Shown here: piece by piece, positions 1 through 62,680 of the stretch
How positions within the stretch are numbered: the stretch's first letter is position 1
Layout of the letters: every line of letters starts with the position of its first letter
Assembly (NCBI GenBank): GCA_045837725.1
Contig: JBEWZL010000239.1
Span: 62,001 to 126,000, forward strand
Origin: Vermamoeba vermiformis
Lineage: Eukaryota
Direction: 5' to 3'
Length of the DNA stretch: 64,000 bases
Program-made: the position numbers and the translations under genes
Notes under the pieces: generated by a model
What the model was told of the DNA's origin: nothing
The model's input: only the letters and a program-made list of their open reading frames with translations
Databases searched by the model: none

Positions 1-3000
1 ACCCGAGAAGAAAAGAATGATGACGACGAGCCATTATTTACCTCAGCGAGGCTTGTCAAAGAGCCTGATGAAGAGCCTATGTTCACCTCCGCGAAGAAGC
101 TCTTGCATTCAAGTAAAAAGAGCCCCGATGTTCAATTCAGAACGGCAAAGAATGTGGCTCGAGATAATGCCGATGATGAACCTCTGTTTGCCTCTGCAAA
201 GTCACGCATGAACGAAGAGACTGAATCGAGTGAGCCGGTATTTAGTTCTGCGAAGAAGATGGTATCGAATACAGCTCAAGACGGGGCACCTAGAAGGCGT
301 GTCAAGATTGGAGACAAACCTCTCAAAGGCAAGAAAGTTAACATCAGCGATCTATTCGAGGATGACGATGCAACGTCAAACATAGACGAGCCGAAAGGGG
401 CCTTGTCCACGCGTACAATCGAGGAGCCTTTCTTCCGTTCCGCGAAGAGTTTGCCGAAAGACAACGATGAACCGACCTTTTCTTCTGCCAAGCGTTTGCT
501 CGAGGAGGAGAAGGAAGTGGGGTTTACTACAGCGAGCAAAGCCCGGGAAGAAGAACCCTTATTTACATCAGCAAAGCAGCTGATGCGAGGGGAGAGCGCC
601 GACAAGCCTCCTGTCAAGGCCACCTCTGCGCAGAAGAGAGTTATCATCAAGGGTCCTCCGTTGAAGAAGGCGAAGATAAGCGCTATATTTGACGACGACG
701 AGGATGCTCCCGAGACATCTACAACGGCTGAGTTTTCTTTTGGAAAGAAGGCCAACAATGACGCGGGTCAGAAGTCCAGCCCTGAGTCCGATATAACCCA
801 CTCTGAAGAGAAGAAAAGCCGTATGAGTAGCATATTTGACAGTGACGAGGAGGACGGAGGTGACAGCAAAAAAGAGTCTGATGAAGATCTGCTGGCCAAA
901 TACGGCGGATTTACCAACTTTGCAACCGGCAAGAGCACCACGAATATTCTCAAGGACAAGAAGAACATAGCCAAGGCGCAGAAGGTACTCGGAGACGTCG
1001 CCGAAAAGAAGGCTAAACTCAGCCGGATCTTTGATGACGAGGACGACGAGCCTGAGGAGGGCACCAAAAAGGAGTCCGACGAAGACTTGCTCGAGAAGTA
1101 TGGCGGCTTTACGAATTTTGCCACCGGCAAGAGTACCACCAATATTTTGAAGAACAAGAGCAACATAGCTAAAGCGCAGAAGGTTCTCGTTGACGACAGC
1201 GAGAAGAAGGCAAAACTGGGTCGTATTTTTGATGACGAGGATGACGAGCCTGGAGATGCCAAGAAAGAGTCCGACGAGGACCTGCTCGAAAAGTATGGAG
1301 GCTTCACTAACTTCGCTACGGGCAAGAGTACAACCAATATCCTGAAGAATAAGACAAATCTTTCGAAAGCACAAAATGTTCTTGGCGACAACAGCGAGAA
1401 TAAGGCCAGACTGAGCCGCATCTTTGCCGACGAGGACGACGAAGAGAACAAAGTTGATGACAATCCGAACAAAGAAACTGACGAAGACTTGCTCGAGAAG
1501 TACGGAGGCTTCACGAATTTCGCCACCGGCAAAAATGAGACGAACATTCTGAAGAAAAAAGACAGTCTGAACACAGCCCAAAAGATGTTAGGCACTGCTG
1601 ATGAGAAGAAGTCTCGATTGAGTAGGATATTCGACGACGAAGAAGACGAGGGCCTGCCAAAGGAGAACGACGAAGACCTGTTGGCGAAGTTTGGTGGATT
1701 TCAGAATATGGCCACTAAACAGCCGATGAAGCCGCCTGCTAATAAGGAGAGTGTGTCACGTGTCAATGCAATCTTCGATGAGAAGGGTGACGACGAAGAG
1801 GCTCTCGAGAAAGCGTTCGCAAAGAGACGCGAGCAGGCAGCCAAGCAACGTGTTCAAAAGCGACAACCAGCTGCTCCGCTTAATCCGCTCGAGAAGGGCA
1901 AGAGACCGTTCGTCAAGCCTCGAGCGACAGTTACTCCGAACAAACCTCCGGTGGCCAAGCCAGTGCCTGACGTGCCCTTGGCCTCATCTCAGGACGATCA
2001 AATCTCACAATCAGACGTTGATCTCCTCGCAGGACTAGAAGATTCCACACAGTTAACACAAGATAGAGATAACTCGGATATGATGGCAGTCGATAAGCCT
2101 GAAGGCGAGGAGAGCACAGTTGACATCAACATCAACTACGACAATGTAAATAACGAAGACGATCAAATCAACAATAACAACTTCAATGTAAATAATGTAA
2201 ATACAAACCAAGAACACATCGACAGTCAGACAGCCCGACAAATACAAGAGACGTTGGAGGGCATCGACTTTGACCGAGATTTTGGAGACCCAGAACCGAA
2301 ACAAGACAACAACGAGCCTAAAGAAGAGGACGCGGAGCAGAGCACGTCCAACAGTCCGAGTCCGAGCAAGAATGTCTTCTACGCTGTGAGCACGAGTCAG
2401 ACGCCAAAGACACCAACGGCCAAAGCTCCTAACATGGTCTATTCTACACCTGCCACAGGCAACAAGAAGTTCAAGACACCGCCTACACCACAAAGTACAC
2501 CTGGCACGGTCCACAGACGCTTTTTGACGCCGTCAAATTCAATGTTCAAGCCCAAGTCCAACTTCTCGACGCCTTCAACGGTTAAGAGGAAAGGATTTGA
2601 AGGCACGACGACTAATGCAAACAATGGATTGCTCAGTCCGAACGTCAACAAACAGTTGATGTTCTCGCCCAACAAGGCAACACCGAAGAAGGCCATTAAC
2701 TACGGTGTGGCTGAGACTCCGAAGAAATCCGGTGGCGCCACATCACCCTCGCGACCCAATAAGGAGATTGCACTATTCAATCTGACAAGTAAGCCCTAGT
2801 AATACGATTATACGTGCAATGATCGCTAATTATTTTTACAGAACCAGCCAATCGGTACTCGCTGAAGGATTTTTCAGTGAAGTATCTGCGACGTCCTGAG
2901 AACTTATCCGAGGACACCTTGAGGGCCTATAATATGTAAGTACTGCCCAATGAGCACGGTAAATACTAACTGTGGCTAGTGACCCTGCAATCATGTCAAT

Positions 3001-5482
3001 GACCGCTGATTCAGCCGCACAGTTCAAGTTCCAGAACCCTGAGAACCCTGGCGAATTGATCGGTTATAACGAGCTACGCACACTTTTGATAGGGGATGGT
3101 GCAGGTGAGAAACTGGCCACTGTCGCGTGGGTGAAAAATCACTACAAGTGGATCGTGTGGAAGTTAGCCTCGATGGAGCGGATGTTCCCGCAAGACTACG
3201 CGAATCAGTACTTGACAGCTGCACGTGTGCTGTCACAACTAAAGTACCGTTATGAACGCGAGATAAATCAGGCACAGAGACCAGCGATCAGAAAGATCCT
3301 TGAGCGTGACGAGTTTGCAGGGCGATACATGGTGCTCTGTGTCTCGGCCATCCGATACCGCGGCAAAGATGGAATTTTTGTGCCTGCTAAACCTATTCGC
3401 GACAAAAGTGCTGGCAATCCGTTCCCACCGATGCGAAAGCCGTCAGATCCGTCTCAAAAGGAAGAAGTGAATGAAAACGCCAACGAAGAAGAGGCAGATT
3501 ACGAGGCACTGGGCGGCAACTGTGCCATCATTGAAGTGACTGATGGCTGGTACAGTGTCAACGCACACTTGGACGAGTACATGACTGCACTGCTGAGACG
3601 CGGCAAGATATTTGTTGGGCTCAAGCTGCGCGTGTTTGGTGCTACTATTAGTGGCTCAGGTACGTAACTTCAAGCGATTTAACTTAGCGTTCTAATGTCT
3701 CTGCGAACAGATCAAGGCGCGTCCCCGCTAGAAATCACACCCTCAACCATGCTCAAGCTGCGCATCAACGGTGTTCGTCGTGCAAAGTGGCATGCAAAGC
3801 TTGGTCTACAACGAAGGTACCGTAATATTAGTATTAATACTCACGTTGTACTGACATTTGTTGCTCTAGCCGAGATTTCGTGGTGAATTTAAAGTCCGTG
3901 CGGGCATTGGGCGGACCAATCCCGTCAATTTCAGTGCTGATTGAGCGAGTCTATCCCATGCTGTACATGGAGTCTTATCCAATGCGTGAAAATTCGTTCA
4001 AAGTCACGCGCACTGAGACAGGCGAGTGGCGCGCGAAAAAAGTTCACGAAGATATGTCGCGGACTATTTTGGACAAAAAATACAACGAGTTGGTGAAAGA
4101 ACAAGAAAATGATCGCAAAGCTTTCCTCGACCATTTGAATTCCAATTTTGGAAAGCGGAAATACTCGCGACAAGAGATCTACGAAGTCGATGACAAGGAA
4201 GAACTTTATTATTTATTCCGCAAGGAGCACGAGTCCCCTGAATTCTTGCAATTGCTCAGCCATCAACAGCACAACGAGTTGATGCGGTTCATCGACGAGT
4301 TGAACGCGACTGACCGCGAAGAGGTTGACAAACGATTGGCCAAGTACAAAGCGGAACATCCTGATTTGAATAGAACTGTCACGCCATTCGTCCGCGTTCA
4401 AGTCCGAGACCATCCATCTTTGGTAAGTGCGGAATAATAGCCGTACTCTATGTACTGTTCTGACTCTCGAATTAGACGCACAACCCGCAGAAAATATCAC
4501 GTGGCTATCTGACCATTTGGAACCCTCATCCAGAGCTGTTTTCAACGGTTCGGGAAGGATATCACGTGACCATCTCAATGGCTAATCCGAGCGAGTCACG
4601 TGACGCGACAGCACTGTTGACTGAAGGCGAGACCACGTACATGACAGCCAACAAAATGACGCGCTACACCCTCGTGTCACGCAGCCCAGCGCCGAGCTTC
4701 AAGGCCCGTGAGTGCATTCACTTTGACAGCTTTGGCAAGTTGGTGGGCTCAAAAGAATTTGACATGGCTGGTGTGGTGATTGGCACCGATCAGAAGGTAC
4801 GTGTCAAAGTGTCAAAGTGTCACTCGAAAGTGTCTAACTGTGTTTGTTACAGCAAGAGGCCTACGAGTTCAACAAGGTCTTGGTGTGTCAAAACATTTAT
4901 TTGACTGACATGACAGGTGTCATTTTAGTGGTGCAAATTCGGTGCAATCCTGATGACTTTCCTAATCGGGACATTGTGTCGGTTGGCAACATTGTTGGCA
5001 TGGCGAATTTGACTTACAGGTACTGGCGATCCCTTTCTTAACTCCGCTCAGTGTACTAATGCAGCACTTAGATTTTACGACGAGCGATGCGGTGTGCACA
5101 TGTCCTCAACGTCCATTTACACGGCCTATTACAGCAAGTCAAATTTATCGCCGTACATGCACAGCACACGCGACGCTATCGACCAGTGGATGAAGCAAGA
5201 GTAAGTCATTGGGTGCTATGTAGAGCTTATATAACGAGTGTTAATACCGCATTTAGGGCTGGCAAAGAACTGATTGCCCAGTCGAAAGAAAAGATCGATC
5301 AGTTGCGCGACATGAACTCAGCACGCAACAACAACGAGTACAACGGTCACATGGTTTATAGCCAAGTCAATCAAAATGAGATTGAGAAGACCGAACTAGC
5401 CAATAATAATAATCATCAAGAACAACAAAAGTCGCTTCTAGACGATGACTTTGATGAAATTCTCGCAAAAATGGATGTGTAA
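1..5482 (+). CDS. BRCA2: BRCA2 homolog, multi-exon, 5' end upstream of the window: FxxA/BRC-like repeats, then helical domain and OB folds
   Basis: Frame 1 is open from base 1. Later exons carry BRCA2 DNA-binding-domain motifs WVKNHYKWIVWKLASME, LSQLKYRYERE, IRKILERD, IEVTDGWYSV, LRINGVRRAKWHAKLG, IERVYPMLYME, RTVTPFVRVQV and GYLTIWNP. GT-AG introns include 2789-2841 and 2936-2979. Stop at 5480-5482. Confidence 0.93.
820..1790 (+). repeat. Coding tandem repeat of ~60 aa in BRCA2 (4 near-complete plus 1 degenerate BRC-like unit)
   Basis: The unit SRIFDDEDDE..KKESDEDLLEKYGGFTNFATGKSTTNILKNK.N..KAQKVLGD recurs with GGF cores near 905, 1105, 1300 and 1505. A degenerate unit GGFQNMATK...KESVSRVNAIFDE lies near 1695. 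Confidence 0.9.
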
Positions 5483-5957
5483 ATGTGGCAGGCACAGCGC
5501 GATTGTAAACGTTAAAAGTTATTTACAGCATTTATTTCGAGCCAACTAACCTTTGTCGTTGAATGTGCATTGGTCGGGCCAAGGGAAAACCCCGAGTTTC
5601 ACTGCACTGACAGAATTAACAACCGGTTTATTATTACAAGATACTAACAAGTTAACAATAATTTCCAGGTAATTGTAGGGGCTTCTACACCACCTGGATA
5701 TCGCTGGTGGATGAACGCCGTGTTGAGCGGTCTTCGCACTTCGAAGCGCGATCTGCAAAAATAGTTATTTACATTAATTGGTTTAAGCAATGAACCTGCT
5801 CCTTTACTTACCCACCAGGAACCCTGAATTTAAAAGGAGTGCAACTGACAATACTCCAGAATTTTAGTCAATTTGCATCTCAATAAAAATCATTTCGCAT
5901 CGACAAGTTTTTTTTGTGCTACAAAACGAAAGAACAGCACTTCTTCCTTCAGGACCA

Positions 5958-6558
5958 TGGAATCAGAAGAGCCCAAATATGAGCCAATCGAAGAGATACG
6001 GCTAAATTATGAAAGATTTTTGTATCTGGTGGAGAACATGAGGAAAGCCAAGGACACACGCCAATTCATCGAGTGGAAGCAAGAATATACCAATTTACAG
6101 TCCGAAATAAATGCAGATATTGACAAATGGAAGGCAGGCAATCGGCATCTGTTGAACGAAAAAAATGATGCAGGACTTACATTCGTTTATTGGACAGATT
6201 TATTCCCGAAAAAGACTGCCGAGGAATGTCACTACTTTAAATACGGCTCTATTGATTATTGCAAAGCTGCGTCGGATTGCCCAGATATCCGGCTTCGTTT
6301 TCTCTCGAGCGTGGAAAGCCAGGAATAATTTGGAATTGTTACCAGGCCTTGCCCGACAACCTTCGTGTTTCAGAGCGCAGCATGTTGTGCTATATGAAAG
6401 ATTCTCCTATGAGAAAAGTTCCAACCCAAGACGAATTGCGCCAGTGGATCAGAGGAAAAACTCCGGACAATGAAGTGTGCAACGTCTTCGTCTGCGGCTA
6501 CATCTTGTCTGCAGCGCCCATGTGTTATGAATTGGGTTACAACTATCAAGAGTATTAA
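5958..6558 (+). pseudogene. Orphan protein gene with an apparent 1-nt frameshift near 6263-6265
   Basis: ORF MESEEPKYEP... stops at 6328, while an overlapping frame (6259-6558) continues a protein-like sequence. Adding one A to the AAA run at 6263-6265 gives continuous YCKSCVGLPRYP. No splice signals are evident at the junction. Confidence 0.4.
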
Positions 6559-6824
6559 CATTGTATCAGTATTGTGGTGTGCGAATTAAATTGAGATCTT
6601 GTCCCGCAGCTAATTTGTGCGTTAGTGCAAAACTCAATACCACTACAGTGCTGTATATTTGGTACGTAATTTTAAGCTAGATAATTTAAGGAATTAAATA
6701 AAATATTAAACATAAGACACGCAGCAAGTCAAGCAAGAGTGCATATTGTAATTAATTGAATAATAATTTAAATAAGCGGTAATATTATTTAATAATTACA
6801 GTTATTAATAATTGATTAAAGCGA

Positions 6825-7628
6825 ATGAAAATCGTTATTCAACGAGTTCTTGAAGCCTCGGTCGAGGTAGGAGGCAAGGTCATCAGCAAAATCAATAGAG
6901 GGTTATTAGTGCTCGTTGGAATCCATAAAGATGATAAAAAAGAAGACGCTGACTTTATGTAAGTTTTTTTGGCCAGATTTACCGATCAACGTTTTGGATC
7001 GCGATGCCAAATTTACTAACTTGTTATATTTTAGTTGCCGTAAGGTACTTAACACACGGTTATTCGATAACGACGAAGAAAAGCCGTGGAACAAGTCAGT
7101 AGTCGATAAAAATTACGAGATCTTGTTTGGTGCGTTACAGTAACGTCCTTTTATGGACACTATAGTGCCATGACGTTATATTAATACTATACATCATAGT
7201 CAGTCAATTTACACTATACGGAGTGTTGAAAGGCAACAAGCCTGACTATCATAATGCCATGCCGCCAACTCAAGCAAAAGAATTTTATAGCAATTTCCTT
7301 GGCGAGGTCAGAAAGGCGTACAAAGCCGATAAAATATTCGGTAAGTATATTTAGAGTTCAATTATCAATTTCGAAGGCATCTAAGCACGAGTAACTGTTT
7401 TGAAATTTGGATCCAGCGAGGCTTCCCCGCCACTTTTGCTTCATTTTAACGAAGCTTATCAAGTATATTAGAGATAGATTTTTGTATTCAGTTAGTACGA
7501 TTATTTATATTTTATAATTAGACGGAGAGTTTGGAGCGATGATGAAAGTAAATTTAGTAAATGACGGACCAGTGACGCTAGTTATCGAGTCTAATAACAA
7601 CGGTAACAATAATAAAAAAGACGAATAA
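6825..7628 (+). CDS. DTD1: D-aminoacyl-tRNA deacylase (4 exons)
   Basis: Spliced translation [33 protein letters not shown]...[12 protein letters not shown]...[19 protein letters not shown]...[19 protein letters not shown] contains the SQFTL and NDGPVT signature motifs. Confidence 0.95.
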
Positions 7629-8012
7629 AAACTTTCAATTAAGAAAGAGTTATAGTAATATGTCGCGTACGAAGTAGTGGTGTGCTAGGAAGATCCAGTA
7701 CGACTATGTTGTAAAGTAGCCTACAGCGGAAGTCAAATACCACTATAGATCTATTAATAGGATTCGTCGAGTCTTTGTAAGTCTTGTCCAATCATTTGGA
7801 TTGCGATCCGAAAGTGGTTGTTCGGATTGGTTAAACTTTGTCGACGGGACAACGATCAAATGTTTACTGCCCTGTTAGACGACCCACCCACATATTGAGA
7901 CTTATTAAGGGCATAATCTTTTGATTCTAAGTGTATGGTGTGTCAGCACCAAAATAATTTGACTTTAAAGGAGAAAAACCAAACTGCGGAACAATTCTGA
8001 ATTTAGCGCTTA

Positions 8013-11000
8013 ATGGATAACACAAAAGATGTCCCTAATAATAATAATCAATTAAATATGTTCAATCAACAACAAGACGTTGCGGCAACGATGAATGCTC
8101 GATCTGCACGCGACTTTTTGCAAGAGACGAGGCGCAGAAGAGAAGAGATCATTGAAAGTCTTCGCAGACCTTCAATTACACCTGTAGTCCAGCCTGTGCA
8201 ACCTCCACCTCAACAGAAAAGCAATGAAATGGAGGTGGATGTGCCGCCTGAAAAGAGATTCGAGTTTGTAGATGAGCGCTTTCAGACTGTCGATGCACGC
8301 TTAAGAAAAATAGAAGCAGCAATAATTCAGAATAATATTGGTGGTGTTGATTTAGAAACTCTTAATAGAGTTAAAAGAGAGCTGCAGAAGATCAAGTTGC
8401 AATACATCCAAACAACGACACAGACCGAAGAAATAATTAACAAATTATTACAAGAAAATCAGTACCTTCGATCAAAATTAATGGACGTCGAAGAAGAGAA
8501 CGAGCATTTGAAAGCGGTACTTATTATGATTTTTTCTAAAATTTACAGTTTTAAACGAATTTTTCCGCCAGCTTGATGACGATGAGTACCCTGCTAACAA
8601 GCGACGTAGAATGAGCTTTGGTATGTGTTTGCAAAAATTTATAGTTACTTTTATCACGATTAATTTTGCGATTAAAATTTTCAGATGCTTATACTCCGAT
8701 CCGACGCGTCTCTATAGACTCTACAGGCGATGAAGATAGCAGTACTTCGCAACAAGGCATTGGTTTTCAAGTCCAATCGCCACCCAGACTGGAAGTCACG
8801 TACCCGACTGGTTACAATCCGCTCAAAAGACGATTTTCAGTTAGCTCTGAATCGTTCCATCCAGATCAAGTCAATGTCGAAGCAAAAATTATTCCGAAGA
8901 GCGAAGAGGCTAAAGCAAGCATTCGAGAGAATATCAAGCACAACCTTTTATTCAAAAATTTGAGCGAGGATCGCATTGAAGAGGTTGTTAATGCGATGAC
9001 GGAGGTGAAGTATTTGCCAAATGATACTGTTATAAAAGAAGGTACGTCTCATGCAATTTAAATTAATAGCCTACAATAGCTATTATTTATCGGAGCGCAT
9101 CCGGTCTAAATATGGATCCACTCTAAATAATTAATATTATGTTTAGGCGATGACGGCGAGAATATGTACGTCATTGACCAAGGAGAGTTGAATGTTCTTT
9201 ACGCTTCCGAAATTGTTGCTACACTAGGTCCGGGCAAGGCGTTCGGAGAAATAGCTTTGATGTACAATTGCCCGCGTACCGCCACTATCAAAGCCAAGAC
9301 CGAGTGCAGATTGTGGGCCATGGACAGAAACACTTTCAGACGCATTTTAATGAGCGACAGCATCAAGCGTCGTGCTTTGTACGAGTCTTTCTTGGCTAAG
9401 GTCCCTATCTTTGGTACGTACTATGAGATTTAATTATTGGAGTTAGAATGGCATTATATCGGCAAAAGACGGCATATTAATGTTATATTTCTATAGAATC
9501 GTTGCTTCCTTACGAGAGATCCAAGGTTGCAGATGCACTCGAACCAGTTAACTTCAATGACGGCGATGTTATCATTCGTGAAGGTGATACCGACGGCGAT
9601 AAATTCTATATTGTTGAAAAGGTAGGAGTTGACGAATTAAGGTACCACTCGTAACTAGATCTGACGTGTTGTTTTTCCGCTAGGGCGAGGTTGTTTGTAC
9701 AAAGACATCAACGGATAAGAGTACTTCAGTCTTTTCATCGCGCTTGAACGAAGGCGGCTACTTTGGTGAATTGTCGTTGTTGACACGTCAACCCAGACAA
9801 GCCACGGTGACTGCTGTTGGTCCCGTGAAGTGCCTTGCCATCAGTCGCGATCATTTCGTGCAGGTTATGGGCCCGTGCGAAGAGATCCTCAAGCGCAACA
9901 TGATGCACTATGCTACATACGAAGAACTGATCAAGCAATCCAAGACGCAATCTGCCAAAGAAGCTGTCAACAATGAAAAGGCCAAGGAAGTGGATCCCAG
10001 CAATAAGGACCATCATGACCGTCTTGGGCTCGTAAATGATCTCATTGCAACTGAGAACGAATACATTGCAGTTTGCACGAAGATTATCAAGGGCTATCTG
10101 TTGCCAATGAGAGCCCAAACCGACTTGAAGATCTCGAAAGACGAAATTGAAATGGTGTTCTGCAACATTGAAGAGATCGTCAAATTGCATGAAGACTTTG
10201 TTCGTGACCTCGAGAAGAACAAGCAGGACTTGCTCGTCGGTGAAGTTATTTCTCAATTTGTACGTGGCACCCTTAAGTCACGATCTGGTACTAACTTCAT
10301 TGCAGGCCAATGGACTACGAATCTACGAACGATACGTGAGCAATTATTTCAACTCGTTGTTCTTACGCAACAAACACAAAACTTCACCCGCACACAACAA
10401 GTTCTTGAAGGCGAGGCTAGCTGATGCCACAGTTAATGGCGTTGATTTGGACAAACTCCTTGAAATTCCATTCCAACGATTGCCTAAATATACTAAGCTT
10501 GTCAAGGTATGCTACTGACGACATTATTAGCTTGTACAGAGGTACTGACAATAATGTAGCAAATGTTGAACTTGACCGACGACAAGCATCCGGATCGACC
10601 GTACCTCCAAATTGCAATGAAGATCTTATTGGAGATTGAAAATACTTACGAAAAGGTCAAGAGAAAGTTGGAGCGATTGTATAATATACAAAACAATATT
10701 TCTGGCGAGCATGAGGTACGTGATCCACATCCATCTGTTGCACGTTCTTGTACTGACTTTAAACGCCTTTTAGAACTTCGTTGATCCCAAGAGACAGTTA
10801 AAGCGTGAAGAGGAACTCACTGCCTTAAATGATAATGAGAAGATGAAGAGCTATTTCTTTACAGATCTGATCGTGTTCACGAAGAAGATCGATGTGGGCA
10901 GTGGTGAGTCCAAAGAAGTGCACTTTAAGACTATTCCTTTGAGCGAGTGTCAAATCGCCAAGGGTGATGCACACGTTAGAATCATCTGGAAGAATAGAAA

Positions 11001-11169
11001 CGGAAAGGTAAGGATGTTGTTTCCAGAATGATCTAGTCCCCAAGAAATACTTTACTAATGACTGCTGCTTCAATAGACCGAGAGTATGGATTTCAGCATT
11101 CAATCACCGCAAATGAAGTCCTGGGCTGAAGACATTGAACGAGCAGTAGCAGATCTTTCTCGCTCGTAA
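8013..11169 (+). CDS. Fusion protein: N-terminal coiled coil, PKA-R-like inhibitor motif, two cyclic-nucleotide-binding domains, DH-PH RhoGEF (multi-exon)
   Basis: KRRFSVSSES...IPKSEEAK; CNB-A with phosphate cassette FGEIALMYNCPRTAT; CNB-B with FGELSLLTRQPRQAT. DH motifs RLGLVNDLIATENEY, FCNIEEIVKLHEDF, LLEIPFQRLPKY and HPDRPYL; PH-like YFFTDLIVFTK and MKSWAEDIERAV. Stop at 11167-11169. Confidence 0.88.
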
Positions 11170-11428
11170 TTTTACCTGTTAGTTTTTGCTTTTAATTAAT
11201 TCAAAACAATGTACATATGTAATGATAGACGAATTAAAACTTAATAAGTTGGTTACGAGCAGTGTTTCAGTTTATTGTTCCGTTGCGATGAATTTTGACC
11301 GAAGGAAAAAAAGTCAGCAAAAACAACGGTAATAATTTTTAATCGATAAACAATAAGTAGAGAATAGCAACACACAGTACCCTTATAAAGGGAAAATATA
11401 TAAAAAACCAAAAAAAAACAAATAAATA

Positions 11429-13020
11429 ATGGCTCATCTAGCCCACGAAAGCGCCGAAGATTATGGAATAAAAGATGTATGGATAGATAATTTAGAAGAA
11501 GAGATGGAAAAGATTAGAGATATTGTAGAGGCATATCCCTACGTGTCAATGGTAATATTTTATAGCCTCGGGATCATGCATCGTGAATCGAGCGAATAGT
11601 GTCGCGGAGGCAGTCTAGCGATTGAATTAGCCACAAAAATATTAATACTTAATTATCACATAGGATACCGAGTTCCCTGGTATTGTTGCGAGGCCAGTCG
11701 GTACCTTTAGAAGCCAATCAGATTACCACTACCAAAAACTACGGTGTAATGTGGACTTGTTAAAAATTATTCAGCTTGGTCTATCATTTTCAGATGCAGA
11801 AGGCAATCCTCCACCTGGCATCGCTACGTGGCAATTTAATTTCAAATTTAGTCTAAAGTACGTCTCGCATGCATAGAAAAATTTTCATTAAACCAATAAT
11901 AATCTGGTAATAATTAATTATATCGGTATAATTAATGCGCGGTAAATTGGTAGCGTTAGAATCGATGACGAATTTTACGGGTTGGATTTATAAAATAACC
12001 TGAAAAATATCTTTTTGAAATTGTAATTTTTCTAACGGCAATAGTTCCATATTTAAGTGTCGTAAAAATACGTCACAAAGCCAACGAAATCAAACAGCAA
12101 ATCACGCGCGTAGAATTATTGATAATTTTTCTTTTATTCGTTCATGAATTAATTGATTCGTATTTGCAGCGAAGATATGTATGCACAAGACAGTATTGAG
12201 CTGCTGACTCGAGCAGGCATCGATTTCAGGAAAAACGAACAATATGGCATTGATCCGATTGAGTTTGGCGAACTCTTGATGGCATCAGGTCTCGTCCTAG
12301 CGGAGAACATTAAGGTCAGTAATATTGCACTTATTTATTAGAATTTTAGCAATATTCATCCACAAATATGTTTAGTTACACGTCATAATTGTTACGGACC
12401 ATACTAAATCGAGGCATCATTAATTTAATCGCGCTACACAACAGCTAAAAAAATTACTTAATTTGGATTTATATAGTAAATAATACGATGTATTAATTTG
12501 GAGATGATACTAATACGGTAATCTTAACTATAGTGGGTGTCATTCCACAGTGGTTACGATTTTGGATATTTGCTCAAAGTGCTGACCTGTCAGCCCCTGC
12601 CACCAACAGAAGAAGAATTTTTCGAATTAATTAAGACGTATTTTCCGAATATTTACGACATTAAGTACATGATGAAAGCGTGCAAAAATCTGCGCGGTGG
12701 TTTGAACAACTTGGCTGATGACTTAGAGGTACATTTCACTCATAATATAACATTAGTATAATAATATAAGAGAAATTATATTATGGAGCTATGACGAATT
12801 AATAGAAGGAGTGTTTACTAATTTTTTTTTGGATCAGATCTCGCGAGTTGGCCCACAGCATCAAGCAGGCAGCGACAGTTTATTAACGAGTCTGAGCTTT
12901 TTTAAGATGAAAAGATTATATTTTGAAGATTTAATCGATGACGACAAGTATCTGGGAATTTTGTTTGGTCTCGGAGTTTCCGCGTCAGATTCAGCAGTCG
13001 TTGTGCCGTACCGAGAATAA
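11429..13020 (+). CDS. CAF1: CCR4-NOT deadenylase subunit CAF1/POP2 (CNOT7/8), 5 exons
   Basis: [12 protein letters not shown]...[62 protein letters not shown] and [15 protein letters not shown] (DEDDh nuclease). Confidence 0.96.
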
Positions 13021-22500: not shown

Positions 22501-22953
22501 TTATTTGGAGTGATTGACGATGGTAGAGGTACCAGTAGATCCAAAACCTCCGCTACCACGAGCAGTAGCATCGAGGTCCTCAACTTCTTGCACTGGAGGC
22601 GTAGTGATCTTCTCGATGAGCAGCTGAGCAATGCGATCGTGTTGATTGATGACGAAATCAGTGTCGCTGTGGTTGAATAATAATACCATAACATTGCCAC
22701 GATAATCCTCGTCAATAACACCAGCGCCAACGTCGATGCCGTTCTTTACAGCCAAACCGGATCTAGGAGCCACGCGACCGTAGGTACCAGTAGGCAATGC
22801 CATAGCAATATCAGTAGGTACTACTGCACGACCTCTAGCAGGGATAGTGGCGGGACCAGCAGCAAACAAGTCGTATCCAGCAGCATGCGTTGATGCACGA
22901 ACAGGAGGCTTGGCGTTAGCAGAGAGCTTCTTGATTAAAAGAACTTCGGCCAT
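22501..22953 (-). CDS. DUT: Trimeric dUTP diphosphatase, intronless
   Basis: All five motifs are present: [40 protein letters not shown]. Likely start is [10 protein letters not shown] at 22953. Confidence 0.96.
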
Positions 22954-23057
22954 TTTAGATTTTAATTTAACAGTAGTGTGAAGTGTTCTCTTCTGAATTA
23001 AACAAAAGACTGACCGCATTTGTGTTTAGCAACGGTTTTTTTGAAACTAAATTAAAG

Positions 23058-29291: not shown

Positions 29292-31591
29292 TTATTGGTT
29301 GTTGTTTCTTCGTTGCCAGGCCTGTTGTGCTTCCAGTGCAAAATTGCCTCCGAATCCACCTTGTGGCTGAGATTGTTGTCTCGGCGCACCGCCCTGTTGT
29401 TGATGACCGTGGTCTTGCGGCACTTTGTTCAACTTGGATCTGTCGAAGCCTTGAATGCCACTGCTCAAACCGCCCGAGGGAGGTGGAGGCGGGGCAGCAG
29501 GGGCACCTCCACTATTGCCAAAAACGTCACTCGGGCCATCATCAAAAAAAGGATTGGGTTGTTGTTGCTGTTGTTGCTGAGGCGCGGATCCACCAGTGCG
29601 CATAGCAGGACGAGAAGATGAGCCGGGCATAGGCATCTCGTCGTCATCGTCGTACGGGTTGGGTCGCTTGGCAGGCTGAGAAGGTGCGCTGGGGGCACTA
29701 GGAGCGCCTTGAGGACCGCGATAGAAATCTTCGCGGGGTGAAGGGAGGTTCTGTTGCACGGAGGCTTGTTGGTTGACTTGCGGGACTTGGTGTTGAGTGA
29801 CAGGTTGCACGGGCACTTGCGGGGCTTGTGGGGGCTGTTGAGCGGGTTGAGCCACAGCGCCAGTCTTAGCACCACGCTCTAATTGTCTGATGGTGTCTTG
29901 CGCCTCTTTCAATTGCTTGGCCAAGTCAGCTGAGCGTTGTCTTTCAGCGATCAAATCTGCCTTCAACGCCTCGAGTTGTTTTTGTGAGTCCTTGTATTTC
30001 TCAGCAAATGATCGTTCTTCGCGTCTCTTAATGGCCAATTGGTGGTTGGTCTGAGCGGAGGCCAACAAATTGTTCGGCAAAACAACGGGCAATTCCATAC
30101 CTGAAAAAAAGAATTAATTTTAGCTCGTAATAATCAGCTATGCGTACCTTGTTTCTTCATATCAACCAAGTGCATGGCAATGCAGAACTCAATGAGGGAC
30201 AATTGATCGTCCTTGTCAGCATCAGCGATGGCCCAGATCTGACCAACAGCACCGAAGCTCATGCCTTGCTTGCCAAAAATATCCATGGCCATGTGTGAGG
30301 GAATCTTGCCGGTCTCTTCGAGATCAATCTTTGCAAACATTTCTTCGTACTGTTCTTGCTTGTCACCCGGAATGTTCCACACGTCAGTCAAGTTGCCAGA
30401 AGGTGTGGGTTGGAAGGAGGGTGTGGCCATTGAGGAGCCAGTGGTGCCCGTGCTACTGAAGCCACCGAGAGTAGGTGTGGAGCCCAATGTCGGCAACGAC
30501 AACGAGGACGAGGAGAAGCTGGTGAGCGGTGAGGTAAGACCGCCAGGAGTGGGGTTTGAGCCCAACGGGTTCGTGCTGAACACGTTCAAACTGGGCGAAG
30601 AGTACGCGCTCAATGAGGGCGTGTCGGGCTGTGACAACACAGTTTGAATGGACTGCACGAGCGCAGCGGGCACGGCACGTGGCAAAGGCTGACCTTTCAA
30701 ACGAGCGTAGGTCAAGCCCATGGCCAACAAGTACTCGCGCAAGTTCAATCTGCCGTCCTTGTCAGTGTCTGCGAGCTCCCATAATGTAATCAAGTCTTCT
30801 TTGCTGATCGTGGTCTTTTCGAAGATCTGTTGTTTGGCTTCGAGACCAGTAATGTAACCATCGCGATCTGTGTCGTATTGTGGGAATAAAGCGCGGTACT
30901 TTGTAAGGTGCTCGGTCATGTTCCAGTTGAACTAAATGTTTATTAGATAATTTAAACGAAAATTCAAAAGCTCGAAAGAGAAAATCTTTTTTACGCCCGG
31001 CAAACAAAATCAAAGTTAAAACTGATCTAGTTTAAGAATAATAATTATAGCGTTATATAATAGCAAATAAAATTATTTTAAATTTTCTTAAATCGCTTTG
31101 AATTATCGCAATTTTTAGATTCGGGAGATTGAAAAAATAAATTCAAACTCACCCCTGAAGCATCGGTACTAGCGGAAGTTTGCGAGACAAATCTTCTAGG
31201 AGGCAATTGAATTCCAGTAAAATTAGGAAAACCGTGCTGAACGGCTGGGTTGGTAGCCTCATCTACTGACAAAGGTTTTCCGCTTTGAAACAATGCACAA
31301 AGACGTAAAGCCAAATAAAAATCGTCTCTTGAAGGGCTATATTATTATAATTAATACCAGCTCATTATTAATTTTTTGAACATTTTCCGATTGTTACCTT
31401 TGAGGAATGGTGGGATTAACAAGCTCCCAAATCTGCGCCAAAGTTAACTGAGGGATAGCAGTCTTGCGTAATAATTCAACCACATCATTTGTTCTCAGCT
31501 GTCCGTCATGATCCGAGTCGATAGTGTTAAACAAGTAGTCATAGACTTCTCGCTCTTGTTGATCGAGCTGGACTTGTCTTCGTCTTTGCAT
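29292..31591 (-). CDS. EH-domain endocytic adaptor (Eps15/Pan1-like): three EH domains, coiled coil, NPF, Pro-rich and WH2-like tail
   Basis: Three EH/EF-hand units (DSDHDGQL...LAQIWEL; DTDRDGYI...LWELADTDKDGRLNLREYLLAM; IWAIADADKDDQLSLIEFCIAMHLV), then NPFFDD, APPPPP and SSGIQGFDRSKLNKV. Confidence 0.85.
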
Positions 31592-31934: not shown

Positions 31935-34900
31935 TTACTGCGTGGTGCTCGGTTGTGGCGTTACTTGCGCTTGTAATTTCTTATACTCGTTACGTAGCAG
32001 CTGTAACTTCGCTTTGTATGATTCTGTTGCGAAAACAAGGTCAGATCTAGCGAGTCCAACACAGATCTTCAAATCTACTTACCAATTTCTTTAACTGAGA
32101 GCTCTAACTTCACCTTCAAATCATTATTTTCTTTAGCCGTTAATTCAGTCCTTTGAACCATCTGTTGGAAGGTCTGATGGTTCTTTTGTTCAATTTCTTT
32201 GTTCTTTCGGAGTACTTGTAACGTCTGTTGATAGTTCTCTTTCAATTCAGCTATTTCTGATTTGACCGTGCTTTCGGTCTTAAGTTGCTTCTTAAGCTCT
32301 TCAATCTCCTTAATGTAGCCCTAAAGACATTATTAGAACTTGTTTCCAGATCGCATCTGAATCCGAACTTACGTTAATAGTCTTAGTCTTCTCCTCTTCA
32401 GATTTTTTGACTTTTTGCAAGGTCTGTGCAAATAATAATTTCAAGTCATCAACCTCTTTCTTGAGCAAGAGCTCAGACTTGATGTGTTTCTTCAACTCTT
32501 CGTTTTGACGTGCCAACTGTTCCTCGCGTTGTCTGTCAGGGCCAGGACTAGACATAAAGCTCATATGATCAAATGAACCTCCGTATGATAACGACATTGG
32601 CGAGGTCTCGTATGCAATAGAATGACGGGCCTGCATAACAATTAGCAACTATTTCCTAGTTGCATAAAGTGTCTATCTTACCATGATTGGCGTGCTCGGT
32701 GAATCGAAGTCAGGTCGTCGCACCAAATAAGGACTGTTCGGAGCATCACCTGCTTCCGATGTACGACGCACAAGTGTCGGGGTGAGAGTAGGCGTGCTAG
32801 TTTCAGGGGCACCAGACTCAGTCAAACGGCGCATCAAGGTCTGTTTCTCGGTGGCGTAGCTGAACAACAAGTTCTGCTTCTCCTTTTCGAAGCGCTCTTG
32901 TTGGACTTGAAGAGCGTTACGAGCAGACAGGAGCTCTTGTTGCAAGTTGGCGATTTGAGATTGCAAGTCGTGTTCCATGGTCATAAGTTGCTGATACTGC
33001 GCGATTTGGTGACGCAACTACATAGCATCATGAGTACAAAGCCATAAACACTGTGTTTTACGTACCTTGGCGTGTTCTTCTTTCAAAAATTCAAAGTTCT
33101 CTTCGCTGTAGTTCAAATCGGTCTTCGAGTCAAGACCGCCAGATGAACGACGAAGGTTCTCTAGATGTGAGACACGTGCCTTCAAGTTGTTGTTGTCTTC
33201 AATCAAACTGGAGACTTGTTTGACCAGCTTCTCATTCTCAAGCTCGAAATTGGATGTCTCCAACTTAATCGCTTGCATTTCAAGATTCCTTTTTAAAATC
33301 ATTAGGACCTGTTCGTGCTTGTAACATTAGCCCAAACTTACTTAATCTCGACTCGCTTGCGCTCTTCAGTAACCAGGGCATTAAGTTTCTTGACTTCGAC
33401 GTCAAATTTCTCACGCTCTTCCTTCGTGGCTTTAACGAACTCGTCGTGTCGAATAGTAGAGTGATTGAGCTTCTCTTTCAACTCGTCGAGCTCACGTTGA
33501 AGTTCAGCAGAGTTGTTAGGAGCAACCTCAACAGGCGGTGCAGATTTGAGTGCAGCAAGTTCATCGCGGACTACTTGCAAGTCATTGGTCAATTGTGCGA
33601 CTTGTTCAGCGTGCTTCTTCTTGGTCTCATCGAGCAGTTTGTTTGAGCTCTGAAGTTCTTCGCGGAGCTTAGCGGCTTGATCAGGGGCAATATCAGCTGA
33701 GCCTCGTGTAGCACCAATCTTCAACTGACCACCGCTCGTGTTCAGCGTCTGTCGTTGCATGGCTTGAAGCTCCTTTTGAAGAGACTCGATCTGAGCACCG
33801 AGATTCTCTTTGGTAGCTTGAAGCTCGCCTTCGTGCTCAACTTTTGATGTGACCAAGTCATTTTCCATTGAAGTCAACTGGAGCTTGGTGACCTCAAGTT
33901 GGGTCTTCAAGTCCTTAATCTCTTCGCGTGCAGTGCCTAATTCAGCTTCGAGTTTAGCGTTGTCTTCATTAGCCTTGCCGTAGTTGGCCTTGTCCTTGTT
34001 AAGCTCGTCAATGCTGTTCTGCAACTTCTCATTCTCTTGGTGCAAAGAGCTGATTCGTTGCTCGAGTTCTGCCTTTTCAGCGCTCAATTTGTCAACTGCT
34101 TCGCTGCTTCCAGTAGAGCGTTCCTTCAACTTATCTAGCTCTGCCTTCAATGCCTCTTTTTCAGCATTGGCACCCTCAACGTCCTTTCGTTGAGTCTCAA
34201 GTGAGGCTTGAAGGGTCTTAATCTCTTCTTCAAGCGATGCCTTGGCAGCGTTCAAATTCTCGACGAGAGCGTTGTTTGCAGTGAGCCCTTCCTTCAACTG
34301 TGCAATTTCTGCGTTCAAGTTGTTCTTTTCGCTAGTCATTTGATCCAACTGTTGGTGCAAACCAGCGGTGACGTTATTAATAGAGGCCTCGTTGGATAAG
34401 ACCTTGGACTGCAAGGACTTGACGGTTTCTTCGAGGCTTGCTTTAGAAGCATTGAGTTCTTCAACGAGTACGTTGTTCGAAGTAATAGTCTCGTTGAGTC
34501 TTTCTAATTCGCTGCTCAACTTGGCCTTCTCTTCATTCGCCTGTGCCAAGTCTTGCTTCAACTTGTCCACGACACCATCTTGTGAGGACTCGTCGGTTGA
34601 GAGCTTCTCTTGCAGAGACTTGAGGTCTTGCTCGAGGGCTGCCTTCTCGCTGGTCAACTGCTCCACGAGAGAGCCGTTAGCAGTGACACTCTCCTTCAAT
34701 TGATTGAGCTCCTCTTCTAGCTTGGTCTTCTCACTAGTGACCTGCTCCAATTGTTGTTGCAGTCCGCTAGCATCGTTTTGAGAGCTCTGTGAGGATGCAA
34801 GTTGATCTTGCAAGGTCTTCAATTGTCCGCTCAACTGTTCTCGTGCTTCGGTGGCCGATTTGAGCTCGTTTTGCACGTTGCTCAATTGCTCGGTCAGGCT

Positions 34901-37900
34901 TGTAATGGTCGAAGACAACGATTCATTTTCTTCTTGGAGCTTGGCTACCTCTTCAGAAGCCTTGTTAGCGTCGGGTGAAGGCGTAGTGGATTTCTTGGCC
35001 TTCTCCTCCTGCAGCATTATTTAATTAGTTACGAAATTCGCAGAATTATTTGTTGAGACTTACAGCTTCGTGCAACTGCTTTGTAAGTGATTGATTTTGC
35101 TTCTGCAAGTGCTTGTTATCCTTTTCAAGAGCCTCGCTATTAGCCACAAGTTGCTCCATGATTCGGTTCGTCTCTTCGTACTTTTCGGTCAAATCTTTGA
35201 CTTTTGCTTCAGCAGACGATAGTTGATCCTTCAACTGCAAGTTATCAACGTTCAAATTGCGCAGTTGATTCTCTTGCAAGTCAATTACTTCGTTCTGCAG
35301 CGCTTGATTTTGTTCTTCAAGCTTTTGTACGCGTCGGCTCTCCGAGTCGTAGAGCTCTTGCATTTCCTTCAGCTGAGCAGCTAACTCTGAATTATCGGTG
35401 TCGTTGCTAGGAGCAGGAGTAGGAGCAGTTCCATTCTCGACTGGTTTTTGTTTCGCCAACTCCTCGATCTGCTTTTCGTACTCCTTGTTCTTGACCTCAA
35501 GCTCGTCGACCATTGCTAAAAATCCATTAATATCGCATAGTTTACAGGATAATTCGACTTACCTTTGAACGTGGTATTTTCCAAGTCGAGTTCAGTTCGC
35601 AACTGCTTTTCGAGCAAGATCTGTTGCTTAACTTTCTCGAGTTTGCTCTTCAAGACTCCTGCAATCAAATATTAGATAAATGGTAATTTGTTTTGTATCG
35701 TTGATATTACCGAAATCGCGTTGGAATTTGTTCAGATCATCTTGCAACTGAGCAGATTTGGCAGCTTCAGCCGACAACTTAGCTTGCAACTCTTCTTGAA
35801 CATTGGAAGAAGCCTCTCCATTCGTAGTATTGGCTGCAGCGTTCTCACTAAGCGACTTGAGCTCTTGTTTCAACGCATCCACCTCTTTAGTTTTCTGATC
35901 ACGTTCGCTTTCAAGCTGAGCCACCGTTGCTTGTTGTTGCGCCAATTTGCTTTCAGATTCAACGAGCTTAGCGCTGACGTCATTCAACTTGGCCTGAAGT
36001 TCTTGTTTCAAAGATTCCAACTCTTGGACCTTTTGATCGCGATCCCCTTCACCTTGCTTTAAGAACTCTTGCTGCTTCGCTAACTGTTGTTCGGACTCGC
36101 TTAACTTGTTTGTAATCTCGTGCAATTTTGTTTCATGCTCTTGCTTCAAGGACTCTAACTCCTTAGCCTTCTGATCTCGATCGGATTCGATCTGCTTGAC
36201 CAGAGAGTCGTGTTGAGTAAACTTGGCTTCGTATTCGATGACCTTATCATTGATTTCTTTAAGCTTAGTTTGCAGCTCTTGCTTGAGATTTTCAACGTCT
36301 TTAGCCTTTTGATCTCGTTCAGCCTCGATCTGCTTTGTAACGAGTTGTTGCTCAGCGAGCTTAGTCTCAGAGTCGCTTAGCTTATCGTTAACATCCTTCA
36401 ACTGATTTTGCAAATTAGCCAATTGAGCATCACGTTCTTTAACTTCTATCTGCAGGCTCTCGACGGTCTTGGAATGCTCCTGAAAAGAGCATTAGTACGA
36501 GAACAGATCTGACTTCATAAATTACTTACCTGCTTAAGTTTGTTATGTTCAGCATCAACAGCTTGGAACTTTTGCTCCAATTCGTGATAACTCTTTTCTT
36601 GCAAAGTAGCACGAGCAGCGTCGAGATCAGAAGTCAACTTTACAATCTCTTGAGCCTTTTCGTTATCGCCTGCCGCCTTAGTCATAGCATCTATATATAA
36701 ATAATCATGATTAGCCTCAGTAAAATCGAATTTGAAGAAAAAAAATATTGCGGATCTCGATCGGATCTACGTACCGATTTTTTCTTGCTCAGTCTTCTTG
36801 ACGAGGTTCTCCAATCTCACAGCGTTGTTCTTGTGTTCTGCAATCTCTTCGCGGTTCTTCTCGAGCAATGTAATCAACTCGTCGTTTTTCTCAGTTTGTT
36901 CTCTCAACAGCTTCTCGGTCTGTTCGATTTTCATGCCCATCGACAAATTCTCAGTAATCGACTCTTGCAGCTTAGTATCCAACTCCTTCACTTTAATAGT
37001 CTTCTGATCCAATTGGTTTTGCAAATGAGTGATGCTCAGCTCTTGTTTTTTGTTCGACAACTCCAACTCTTCAATGCGTGATTTGTAGCTGTCATTTGCA
37101 GCTCCTGATTCACTACTAACTTTTTTCAATTGTTCTTCGAGAGTTTTAATCTGTTCTGATTTTTCTTTCAAAGTGTTATTGAACGTGTTCGTAGAATCTT
37201 CGAGTTTCTTATTAAAAGTCGTTTCTTGGTGTCGCAATTGTTCCATCAACGCAGCAACTTGTTCGTCTTTGGCACCGCCATTCGAAGAAATTAAATCATC
37301 GAGTTGTTTTTTTGCAGTCTCATAATCACGTTTCAAAGCGCCGTAATTATCTTTTTCAACGCCCAATTTAGCTTTCATTTCTTCAAGTTCCTGACGCAAC
37401 GAAACTGCTTCGAGAGATTTGCTCGCTACAATAGATTAAGTTAATATGCAGACCTTATAATTATGTTACTTGATTGGAAGCGCAGTTTACTCGAATCAGT
37501 GTTCGCGTGGAGCAGATCCGTTTGCAAATTGACGTTCGATGTGGTCAGCTGTGCAATCTCTCCTTGGAGTTTTTCATTTTCACGCTTCAATTGCTTGTTT
37601 TCTTCCTCTAACTTGCTCACCTAAAAATTCACGTTAAACGTGACCACTAACTTAGTGAAGCAATTATATCACGTTATCCGCCTTGGACAGCATGAAAATA
37701 CAAGTGTATCAATACACTTAATAGACTAATTGACACGGAAAAGTATAAAACTGAAGTGTCACCGATGTAAGTACTGATGACAGGTGTCAAACTGAAACTT
37801 ACATCAACTTGAGGCTTGAGATCGTTGCTCGAGGAGTTCAAACTGTTCGGGCCAGCGTTAGGATTGACAGGTGAGAACTGTGCGCTCTGTCGTTGTCCCT

Positions 37901-60016: not shown

Positions 60017-60258
60017 AGCGAAATAAACATGTAAATTTGAAAGATTTTCGGATCTCGATCTGATTTTTTTCTACTTCGATTTCAAGAGCTCGGTAGCAAA
60101 AAGAATCATTATAATATAACTGTCTTACTGTCGTGCACGCGTTTTTTTGTCAAAAAGCCGGAAATTTCTTCTGGCGCTTGTGCGATCTTCCAGAACAAAA
60201 CCAGAACAGACATTTTTGTGTTTTTTGTCGCATCTGTAACACATGACAAGCCATAAGC

Positions 60259-62427: not shown

Positions 62428-62680
62428 CAATTTTGTAAAATATACCAGCGTGTAAATAATAATAAACCGTGTAGATAAATGAATACCTAAACATCGAGTA
62501 TACAATACAATGCGTTATGGTTCTAGAACCTTTGCTAGCGTTTATTTTCTTGTGTATGACAAAAAATCGGCAAAATTTGAAATTTCACGACCTCGGCGAA
62601 ATAGATCTGTTCCGTTGCGAACTCCAACTTGCACGAGCATGATTCAACAATGAATAGAAATCACCGGAAAGACAAAGAAG

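Follow-up and report, generated by a model that had tools for sequence, protein, structure and literature searches.

Can the sensor of a protein kinase A regulatory subunit (PKA-R) and the exchange module of a Rho guanine nucleotide exchange factor (RhoGEF) be carried by one gene and act as one protein? This question is raised by a locus of the amoebozoan Vermamoeba vermiformis in contig JBEWZL010000239.1 (assembly GCA_045837725.1), from which a stretch of 64,000 nucleotides (nt), hereafter the window, was analysed; all coordinates are positions in this window. A preliminary description, made from the letters alone, had proposed an in-frame fusion of the two modules. A gene model built from the DNA places the fusion gene at 8013-11169 on the forward strand, with 10 exons, a coding sequence (CDS) of 2562 nt and a product of 853 amino acids (aa); its nine introns are all of the GT..AG type and 46-105 nt long, in an eukaryotic context of approximately 40% G+C and short introns. 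The proposed architecture, comprising an inhibitor site, two cyclic-nucleotide-binding domains (CNB-A and CNB-B), a Dbl homology (DH) domain and a pleckstrin homology (PH) domain, is supported by the analysis. The fusion gene is real, spliced, expressed as one mRNA and under purifying selection.

The two halves of the protein meet within exon 6, which is a single open frame of 192 codons without a stop. Taken alone, this exon passes the Pfam cut-offs for both halves, namely cNMP_binding (E 2.1e-11, 44.1 bits against a cut-off of 27.5, model positions 26-86 of 89) and RhoGEF (E 1e-11, 45.8 bits against a cut-off of 27.6, model positions 2-66 of 180), in agreement with the earlier statement that an open exon runs from the C-helix of CNB-B directly into the DH domain. 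Four public sequencing runs (X4, X16, X22 and X24) were aligned to 7600-11600 of the window. A spliced RNA contig of 2208 nt from X4, more than 99% alike, skips all nine predicted introns at their GT..AG ends, spans the gene from the end of exon 1 to exon 10, is continuous over 9682-10259 and extends to 11258. It reads through 9900-10050, where the preliminary description had called for RNA evidence, and bears out its claim that the fusion is not a mis-splicing artefact. A second X4 contig covers 8017-8430 within exon 1, and four of the same splice joints were found in contigs of X16 (RNA-Seq). Raw RNA reads of X22 and X24, whose species label is that of the DNA, cover parts of the gene (57 and 76 reads, 95-99% alike); they represent a diverged strain or allele and support the expression of a close homologue, not the junction. 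A joint from 10499 to 10558 with five other letters in these reads was rejected as a splice variant and ascribed to divergence at the exon end. Of the words sampled, 100% and 99% are present in the DNA runs, which are possibly the source of the assembly itself.

The differences listed between the window and the four runs include 32 base changes in the CDS, of which 30 leave the amino acid unchanged; they are spread across both halves of the gene, and 15 further differences lie outside this list. Two nearly identical database proteins provide additional full-length evidence. Over 836 aa, the model protein and P0001 (839 aa) share 94.1% of their residues, and the alignment is undisturbed at every splice junction; the JGI contig that encodes P0001 is taken to be a transcript because its 2614 nt are too short for introns. 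P0043, which falls into the 90% cluster of P0001, is a complete open reading frame (ORF) of 836 aa from the EukProt transcriptome of Vermamoeba vermiformis, and the model protein matches it with 95.3% identity over 832 aa, again undisturbed at the junctions. By Pfam, P0001 and P0043 each contain two cNMP_binding stretches (2.3e-42 in P0001) and one RhoGEF domain, and nothing further.

The sensor half, as judged by sequence similarity, is of PKA-R type and not of Epac or PKG type. Compared with proteins of solved structure, residues 218-501 of P0001 align with residues 92-375 of RIalpha over 284 residues, from the inhibitor site to the C-terminal helix (E 6.2e-79), followed by RII (8.4e-66), the R subunits of Euglena, yeast and apicomplexans (1e-64 to 1e-55) and PKG (5.5e-53). 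When CNB-A was used alone, the best solved relatives were RIalpha (132 bits), Plasmodium PKG (109.5), PKG I (92) and Epac (52). The inhibitor site KRRFSVSSES, which aligns with the RRRGAI site of RIalpha, and the IPKSEE linker were reproduced at their exact coordinates, and both CNB domains were read with the intact Glu/Arg cassettes that had been reported (Table 1). No match to a protein kinase (Pkinase), RasGEF or REM domain was found by Pfam in any exon, P0001 or P0043. A phylogeny of the CNB pair, which the preliminary description had suggested, was constructed from 46 rows with a quick IQ-TREE run and one kinase-linked outgroup (P0012), leaving out five kinase proteins that align over one CNB (four labelled as oomycete and one Logan record). 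The fused proteins were placed in one group of 17 rows, including P0210 (SH-like approximate likelihood ratio test, SH-aLRT, 95). This group lies within PKA-R diversity beside RI-like and protist R subunits (SH-aLRT 97), apart from the fungal/RII group and from the kinase-linked outgroup.

Two positions of the sensor deserve separate consideration. The P-site of the family is Ser, as in the RII/Bcy1 type, and of 94 other PKA-R-like proteins, 48 share this Ser, 35 have Ala and 3 have Gly. The residue that follows the cassette Arg of CNB-A is Thr in 27 and Asn in 4 of the 31 family rows that could be read, and never Ala, whereas it is Ala in 89 of the 94 other PKA-R-like proteins. It has been reported that a Thr at this place in PKG and cyclic-nucleotide-gated (CNG) channels contacts the 2-amino group of guanine and adds to selectivity for cyclic GMP (cGMP), the corresponding residue of RIalpha being Ala210 (PMC3080414). 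Sensitivity of site A to cGMP, or to both messengers, is a lead suggested by this analogy, and not a finding, because the isolated CNB-A of PKG is reported to prefer cGMP only two-fold (PMC3080414). Two extra RRxS motifs in the linker (RRRMS and RRVS), which are possible feedback phosphorylation sites, are shared with P0001 and not with the family members P0002, P0011 and P0004, and were seen in Vermamoeba-like sequences only.

The C-terminal half carries a DH domain that is well above the Pfam RhoGEF cut-off in exon 7 alone (E 2.5e-10, 41.3 bits) as well as in P0001 (E 3.2e-33, 115.9 bits, model positions 2-176 of 180) and P0043 (E 6.7e-35, 121.3 bits). In sequence, it is closest to the DH-PH of P-Rex1 (7.1e-22), then to collybistin, NET1, Asef and intersectin. 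A CR1 Glu, a CR3 motif and a helix-9 Asn are hallmarks of DH catalysis; the CR1 Glu (in TENEY) and PFQRLPKY, a PxQR..Y motif, align with their P-Rex1 counterparts. On the PH region, Pfam matches were weak (PH_5 with E 0.092 on exon 9; SOS1_NGEF_PH with 2.3e-4 in the relative P0005). An AlphaFold2 model of P0038, a fragment with 94.5% identity, has a mean predicted local distance difference test (pLDDT) of 82 and contains, after the helical DH bundle, a PH fold of seven strands (300-376) and a C-terminal helix (380-397) with pLDDT of about 90. A Foldseek search of this model against the PDB returned only DH/PH tandems, over 316-369 aligned columns, headed by NET1 (5.4e-17), P-Rex1 (1.5e-15) and intersectin (3.8e-15) and also including ephexin4 and p115; no DH/PH subfamily stands out. 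A PH domain directly after the DH domain is thereby supported by the predicted fold. As for the DH/PH tandem originally assigned to the C-terminus, the DH part stands on profile matches, while the profile match of the PH part is weak and its assignment comes from the structural model and Foldseek.

Database searches show that the fusion is not a one-off chimera. The Pfam pair PF00027 and PF00621 is carried by 12 of the 33 matches to exon 6 and by 36 of the 120 best clusters listed for a profile of 27 members, a search that returned 1007 proteins at E values up to 1e-30. None of these 36 clusters comes from an NCBI-annotated genome; their sources are JGI, Logan, ENA and EukProt, together with two UniRef entries from Arcella that are titled only 'Cyclic nucleotide-binding domain-containing protein'. 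Six named genera are represented, with Vermamoeba, Echinamoeba exundans, Pyxidicula operculata and Arcella intermedia in Tubulinea, and Ceratiomyxa fruticulosa and Clastostelium recurvatum in Evosea. Even the distant members share a helical N-terminus, [YF]PxG[YF]..RRxS[VI]..E, KxIxKS, FGEIALMYNCPRTAT, FGELALL..PR.A and MGPCEEILKRN, followed by the DH domain. Of 35 family rows, 22 extend far enough to cover the inhibitor motif [YF]PxG[YF]..RRxS[VI]..E, and all 22 have it, those of Ceratiomyxa and Clastostelium among them; the remaining 13 start at or after the motif (P0008, for instance, starts at KRRYS). Wherever a CNB is covered, its FGE...R cassette is intact (35 of 35 rows). From these alignments, the fusion is a conserved amoebozoan family with the same layout across Tubulinea and Evosea, and its origin is placed early in Amoebozoa because this layout and the inhibitor motif recur in the named relatives.

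When 1.84 billion representatives were searched exhaustively with a profile, and the matches then with a purpose-built DH-PH hidden Markov model (HMM), two giant proteins of approximately 2650 aa (P0051 and P0053) were added. They are encoded on Logan contigs of approximately 8 kb and contain many CNB stretches and two RhoGEF domains; Pfam counts 16 cNMP_binding and 2 DH matches in P0051, and P0053 was seen by the purpose-built HMMs only. They represent a further, different combination of the same two domains. Three candidates for stand-alone paralogues (P0076, P0202 and P0203) were rejected, being cut-off family members instead. P0210, an Asn-rich and PKA-R-like protein of 427 aa on a JGI contig of 1545 nt, shows no DH domain and stands beside P0100 in the tree (SH-aLRT 97); possible explanations are a truncated family member or a relative that has lost the fusion secondarily. 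A protein atlas search with P0043 gave no usable match.

The preliminary description had regarded the architecture as undescribed, which holds for its characterisation and not for the pair of domains. In the Physarum genome paper, one passing sentence of the section 'Cyclic Nucleotide Signaling' mentions the combination of cNMP-binding and RhoGEF Pfam domains (PMC4758236). The Physarum proteins in that sentence are likened to the present family by this domain pair alone and may not belong to it; the present work shows the layout in Tubulinea and in other Evosea. Apart from this sentence, no paper characterising a CNB-DH protein was found in full-text literature searches. The words 'cyclic', 'cAMP' and 'PKA' do not occur in the main text of the survey of Dbl-like RhoGEFs by Fort and Blangy (PMC5499878), nor do 'Amoebozoa' or 'RhoGEF' in a 2025 paper on PKA/AKAP evolution (PMC12083921). 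The domain combination has been noticed once in print, and the family is uncharacterised and widespread in Amoebozoa.

What such a protein might do can be considered on this basis. With somewhat more confidence than doubt, it is predicted to be a Rho/Rac GEF switched by cyclic nucleoside monophosphates (cNMPs) on a PKA-R chassis, and it probably also docks the PKA catalytic subunit (PKA-C). At low cNMP, the R-like module would adopt the 'H-form', in which the RRFS site and CNB-A hold PKA-C, and the DH-PH would be silenced in one of three ways, through the bound kinase, through phosphorylation or through its own packing onto the CNB pair. Cyclic AMP (cAMP), or cGMP at the Thr-bearing site A, would flip the CNB domains as in PKA-R; the kinase would be released, and the DH-PH would become free to act at the membrane, where it would load Rac with GTP. 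A single pulse of second messenger could in this way produce local kinase activity and actin remodelling together. Holding and releasing PKA-C would be the simplest reading because the RRxS site and the linker are conserved. By analogy, the target GTPase in an amoebozoan is probably of Rac type, an output that is favoured because Dictyostelium has been described as possessing Racs and no Rho or Cdc42 (PMC1914345). A bolder proposal, which is put forward only tentatively, is that of an ancestral amoebozoan two-in-one effector, in which PKA-C would be sequestered via RRFS, and cAMP or cGMP would release the kinase and switch on the protein's own Rac-GEF; the RIalpha-P-Rex1 cross-talk would then be ancient and captured here as a fusion, and in Tubulinea the protein would maybe be the principal R subunit.

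Several observations weigh against the switch on a PKA-R chassis. One of them concerns the N-terminus, as the RIIa docking/dimerisation (D/D) domain (PF02197), which defines most PKA-R, was not found by Pfam in exon 1 (sub-threshold matches only), P0001 or P0043. The recorded PF02197 is also lacking in many protist and some animal entries among the best 120 of 427 matches, and the RIIa domain is not universal among PKA-R. In the AlphaFold2 model of P0043, the N-terminal region forms helices at 17-34, 65-93 and 101-157 (pLDDT about 60-78), and this helical region is conserved in P0002, P0011 and P0004. A two-copy complex prediction of the N-terminal 160 residues scored 0.55 (one control scored 0.64) and speaks neither for nor against dimerisation. 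In place of the absent D/D domain, it is probably the helical N-terminus that serves self-association or localisation. Moreover, a sub-clade of four gene predictions (P0003, P0005, P0006 and P0007) shows neither the N-terminus nor the inhibitor site; these proteins start just before or inside CNB-A, which reflects either true loss or truncated models.

The adverse points in the remainder of the protein concern catalysis, coupling and ligand. The ungapped HMMER alignment sets a Glu opposite the Asn of the P-Rex1 'INE' in DH helix 9; the Asn of IENT, three residues further upstream, can be matched only by moving a 3-residue gap, and it is not kept in P0002, P0011 and P0003-P0007. The model of P0043 contains two CNB folds and a disordered segment at 158-233 that includes the inhibitor site, as expected of a free R-subunit linker, and the tether (507-530) is likewise disordered (pLDDT <50); for the full-length protein, the predicted template modelling score (pTM) is 0.40 and no confident packing of the CNB pair against the DH-PH is given. 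Autoinhibition is conjecture because of this lack of confident packing in the model. The identity of the ligand is ambiguous as well, the Thr of site A being a hallmark of PKG and CNG channels, yet with a small preference in PKG CNB-A.

Three other explanations were weighed against the cNMP-switched GEF. The protein could be the PKA regulatory subunit of its lineage, perhaps the sole one, which inhibits PKA-C and uses the DH-PH as a localisation or scaffold tail with little or no exchange activity, like a built-in AKAP. Such a role would be consistent with an inhibitor site and linker conserved as in a working R subunit, with the position of the fused clade within PKA-R diversity (the non-fused-looking, possibly truncated P0210 lying inside it) and with a helix-9 Asn that is not conserved family-wide. 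No separate amoebozoan PKA-R was seen among the few entries whose species was looked up within the best 120 of 427 matches, where the PKA-R-sized EukProt matches came from Mantamonas, Amoebidium, Codosiga and Lapot; however, a lookup that covered few of these matches says nothing about absence, and the absence of a canonical R subunit is not established. Moreover, purifying selection acts on the DH domain as it does on the sensor, and the domain retains the CR1 Glu and the CR3 motif along with the strong RhoGEF matches of P0001 and P0043. This reading seems unlikely.

The protein could also be a PKA-independent switch like Epac, in which the CNB pair autoinhibits the DH-PH until cNMP relieves it, the RRxS serving as a phosphorylation (feedback) site and not as a docking pseudosubstrate. 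Epac is an example of a GEF that is gated by CNB domains with no kinase involved, its CNB being a distant relative here (52 bits), and the P-site residue is a substrate Ser instead of Ala or Gly, with two more RRxS sites nearby in the window protein. However, the similarity to RIalpha spans the inhibitor site, the IPKSEE linker and both CNB domains, which are the contacts of PKA-C in solved holoenzymes; a P-site Ser is likewise found in about half of the PKA-R-like proteins (48 of 94) and in RII and fungal R subunits, which bind the catalytic subunit all the same; and the structural model lacks CNB-DH packing. Such an arrangement is considered improbable. Finally, a PKA-R gene and a RhoGEF gene next to it could have been joined artificially, by mis-assembly or by a read-through model, and a mis-assembly had been named in the preliminary description itself as a ground for refutation. 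No evidence in favour of such an artefact was found, and its chance is negligible; it is refuted because the junction lies inside one exon without a stop and is spanned by the spliced X4 contig, and independent full-length ORFs are also present in transcriptomes of the six named genera.

Table 1. Features of the fusion gene in the 64,000-nt window.
Feature	Position	Strand	Basis or remark
Exons 1-5	8013-8516, 8572-8620, 8685-9041, 9147-9413, 9497-9621	+	Model
Exons 6-10	9684-10259, 10306-10506, 10560-10715, 10774-11007, 11077-11169	+	Model
Start codon ATG	8013	+	Model
Alternative possible start, Met16	8058	+	
Stop codon TAA	11167-11169	+	Model
Exon 1, N-terminal helical region of ~165 aa	8013-8516	+	At the place of the PKA-R docking/dimerisation domain
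Extra linker motif RRRMS	8602-8616	+	Translation
Extra linker motif RRVS	8702-8713	+	Translation
Family signature YPTGY	8801-8815	+	Sequence
Inhibitor/substrate-type site KRRFSVSSES	8825-8854	+	Sequence; Ser at P-site
Linker motif IPKSEE	8891-8908	+	Sequence; aligned with 'vipkdykt' of RIalpha
CNB-A	9005-9358	+	Intron 9042-9146 within; Pfam cNMP_binding on exon 4, E 7.6e-17
CNB-A phosphate-binding cassette FGEIALMYNCPRTATI	9242-9289	+	Glu 9248-9250, Arg 9275-9277, Thr 9278-9280
CNB-B	9547-9869	+	Intron 9622-9683 within; Pfam cNMP_binding matches with E 0.0021 (exon 5) and 2.1e-11 (exon 6)
CNB-B cassette FGELSLLTRQPRQATV	9762-9809	+	Glu and Arg present; alignment with RIalpha CNB-B
Junction exon 6	9684-10259	+	C-terminal half of CNB-B, C-helix, tether and first half of DH
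C-helix of CNB-B MGPCEEILKRNM	9867-9902	+	
Tether of ~35 residues between CNB-B and DH	9903-10019	+	Predicted disordered
DH first-helix segment RLGLVNDLIATENEY	10020-10064	+	
DH (RhoGEF) domain	10032-10640	+	Introns 10260-10305 and 10507-10559 within; Pfam RhoGEF on exons 6 and 7
CR1 Glu within TENEY	10053-10055	+	
CR3-type motif LLEIPFQRLPKY	10456-10491	+	
PH domain	10798-11154	+	Intron 11008-11076 within; predicted structure, Pfam weak
3' untranslated region, at least	11170-11258	+	End of X4 contig

The neighbourhood of the fusion gene was also surveyed. Upstream, a large BRCA2-like gene occupies 1-7000 on the forward strand, with an ORF at 2963-3667 matching BRCA-2_helical (1.1e-22) and BRCA-2_OB1 (2.1e-22); an open frame of 932 aa at 1-2799 on the same strand, which runs off the window start, has no Pfam match. 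Downstream, another forward-strand gene (11430-12400) begins about 260 nt past the stop codon of the fusion gene, has a splice donor at 11552 and attracts RNA reads more densely than the fusion gene; its exon at 11664-11876 (+) has a sub-threshold match to the CAF1 ribonuclease (E 1.8e-4, 21.4 bits against a cut-off of 24.2). The A-rich stretch at 11400-11430 shows length variants. Further away, a dUTPase ORF (22501-23025, Pfam 1e-43), an exon of an EH-domain/EF-hand protein (30134-30931, EH 1.6e-23) and a coiled-coil ORF of 560 aa with many weak matches to coiled-coil families (33338-35020) were found on the reverse strand. Two forward-strand ORFs (60247-60957 and 62654-63625) contain the 'fungal' Zn(2)-Cys(6) binuclear cluster (2.5e-10 and 7.5e-12), which makes them a tandem pair of this type of transcription factor in an amoebozoan.

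With a complete PKA-R sensor and a DH-PH output, the protein would be a cNMP-regulated GEF. Direct control by cNMP is established for Ras/Rap GEFs, such as Epac and GbpC/D, and no characterised DH-PH case was found; for DH-PH GEFs, the link to cNMP is known only via PKA phosphorylation or non-covalent complexes (AKAP-Lbc and RI-P-Rex1). Through the fusion, the actin cytoskeleton could come under the direct influence of cAMP or cGMP. It has been described that cAMP/PKA governs encystment in amoebae (PMC5804921), and by way of this family cAMP might act on cell shape in Vermamoeba and other free-living amoebae. In addition, a natural fusion is a simple test object for asking, with one recombinant protein, if a Dbl-type GEF can be controlled by CNB domains, and it may serve as a natural template for cNMP-controlled Rac tools.

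A comparison with known systems helps to place the family. With PKA-R of the RIalpha/RIbeta, RII and Bcy1 types, the fusion protein shares the inhibitor site, the linker and the tandem CNB-A/CNB-B with their Glu/Arg cassettes. It differs from them in having a helical region of approximately 165 aa instead of the RIIa domain, in continuing for approximately 340 residues (DH-PH) where PKA-R ends after CNB-B, in pairing an RII/Bcy1-like P-site Ser with RI-like CNB similarity, and in the Thr/Asn that takes the place of the Ala following the CNB-A Arg in most PKA-R. Epac (RapGEF3/4) and the Dictyostelium proteins GbpC/GbpD likewise carry a CNB and an exchange factor for small GTPases on one chain, but their exchange factor is a CDC25-type RasGEF for Rap/Ras and not a DH-PH, and they have no PKA inhibitor site; the CNB of Epac is, moreover, distant when measured on CNB-A (52 versus 132 bits for RIalpha). 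PKG has a kinase domain on its CNB chain, whereas the fusion protein has none.

The closest functional parallels are found among mammalian complexes. According to a review, type I PKA binds P-Rex1, PKA-C inhibits it by phosphorylation and RI activates it, and AKAP-Lbc (AKAP13) is a DH-PH Rho-GEF that anchors PKA and is regulated by it (PMC9361040). In the case of P-Rex1 and type I PKA, the two partners and the messenger are the same as those of the fusion, and the DH-PH of the fusion is closest in sequence to that of P-Rex1, although the fold search does not favour P-Rex1 over NET1, ephexin or intersectin. The mammalian partners, however, are two separate interacting proteins, whereas the amoebozoan ones form one polypeptide, and P-Rex1, which PIP3 and G-beta-gamma drive, has DEP, PDZ and IP4P domains in addition. 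AKAP-Lbc resembles the fusion as a DH-PH Rho-GEF that physically carries PKA; it recruits RII through an amphipathic helix to which the D/D domain binds, whereas the fusion protein is without D/D and its R-like module is a covalent part of the GEF. By this comparison, the amoebozoan gene looks like a 'Rosetta-stone' fusion, the covalent counterpart of RIalpha-P-Rex1 and AKAP-Lbc, which would provide independent support for PKA-R and a Rac-GEF as a unit.

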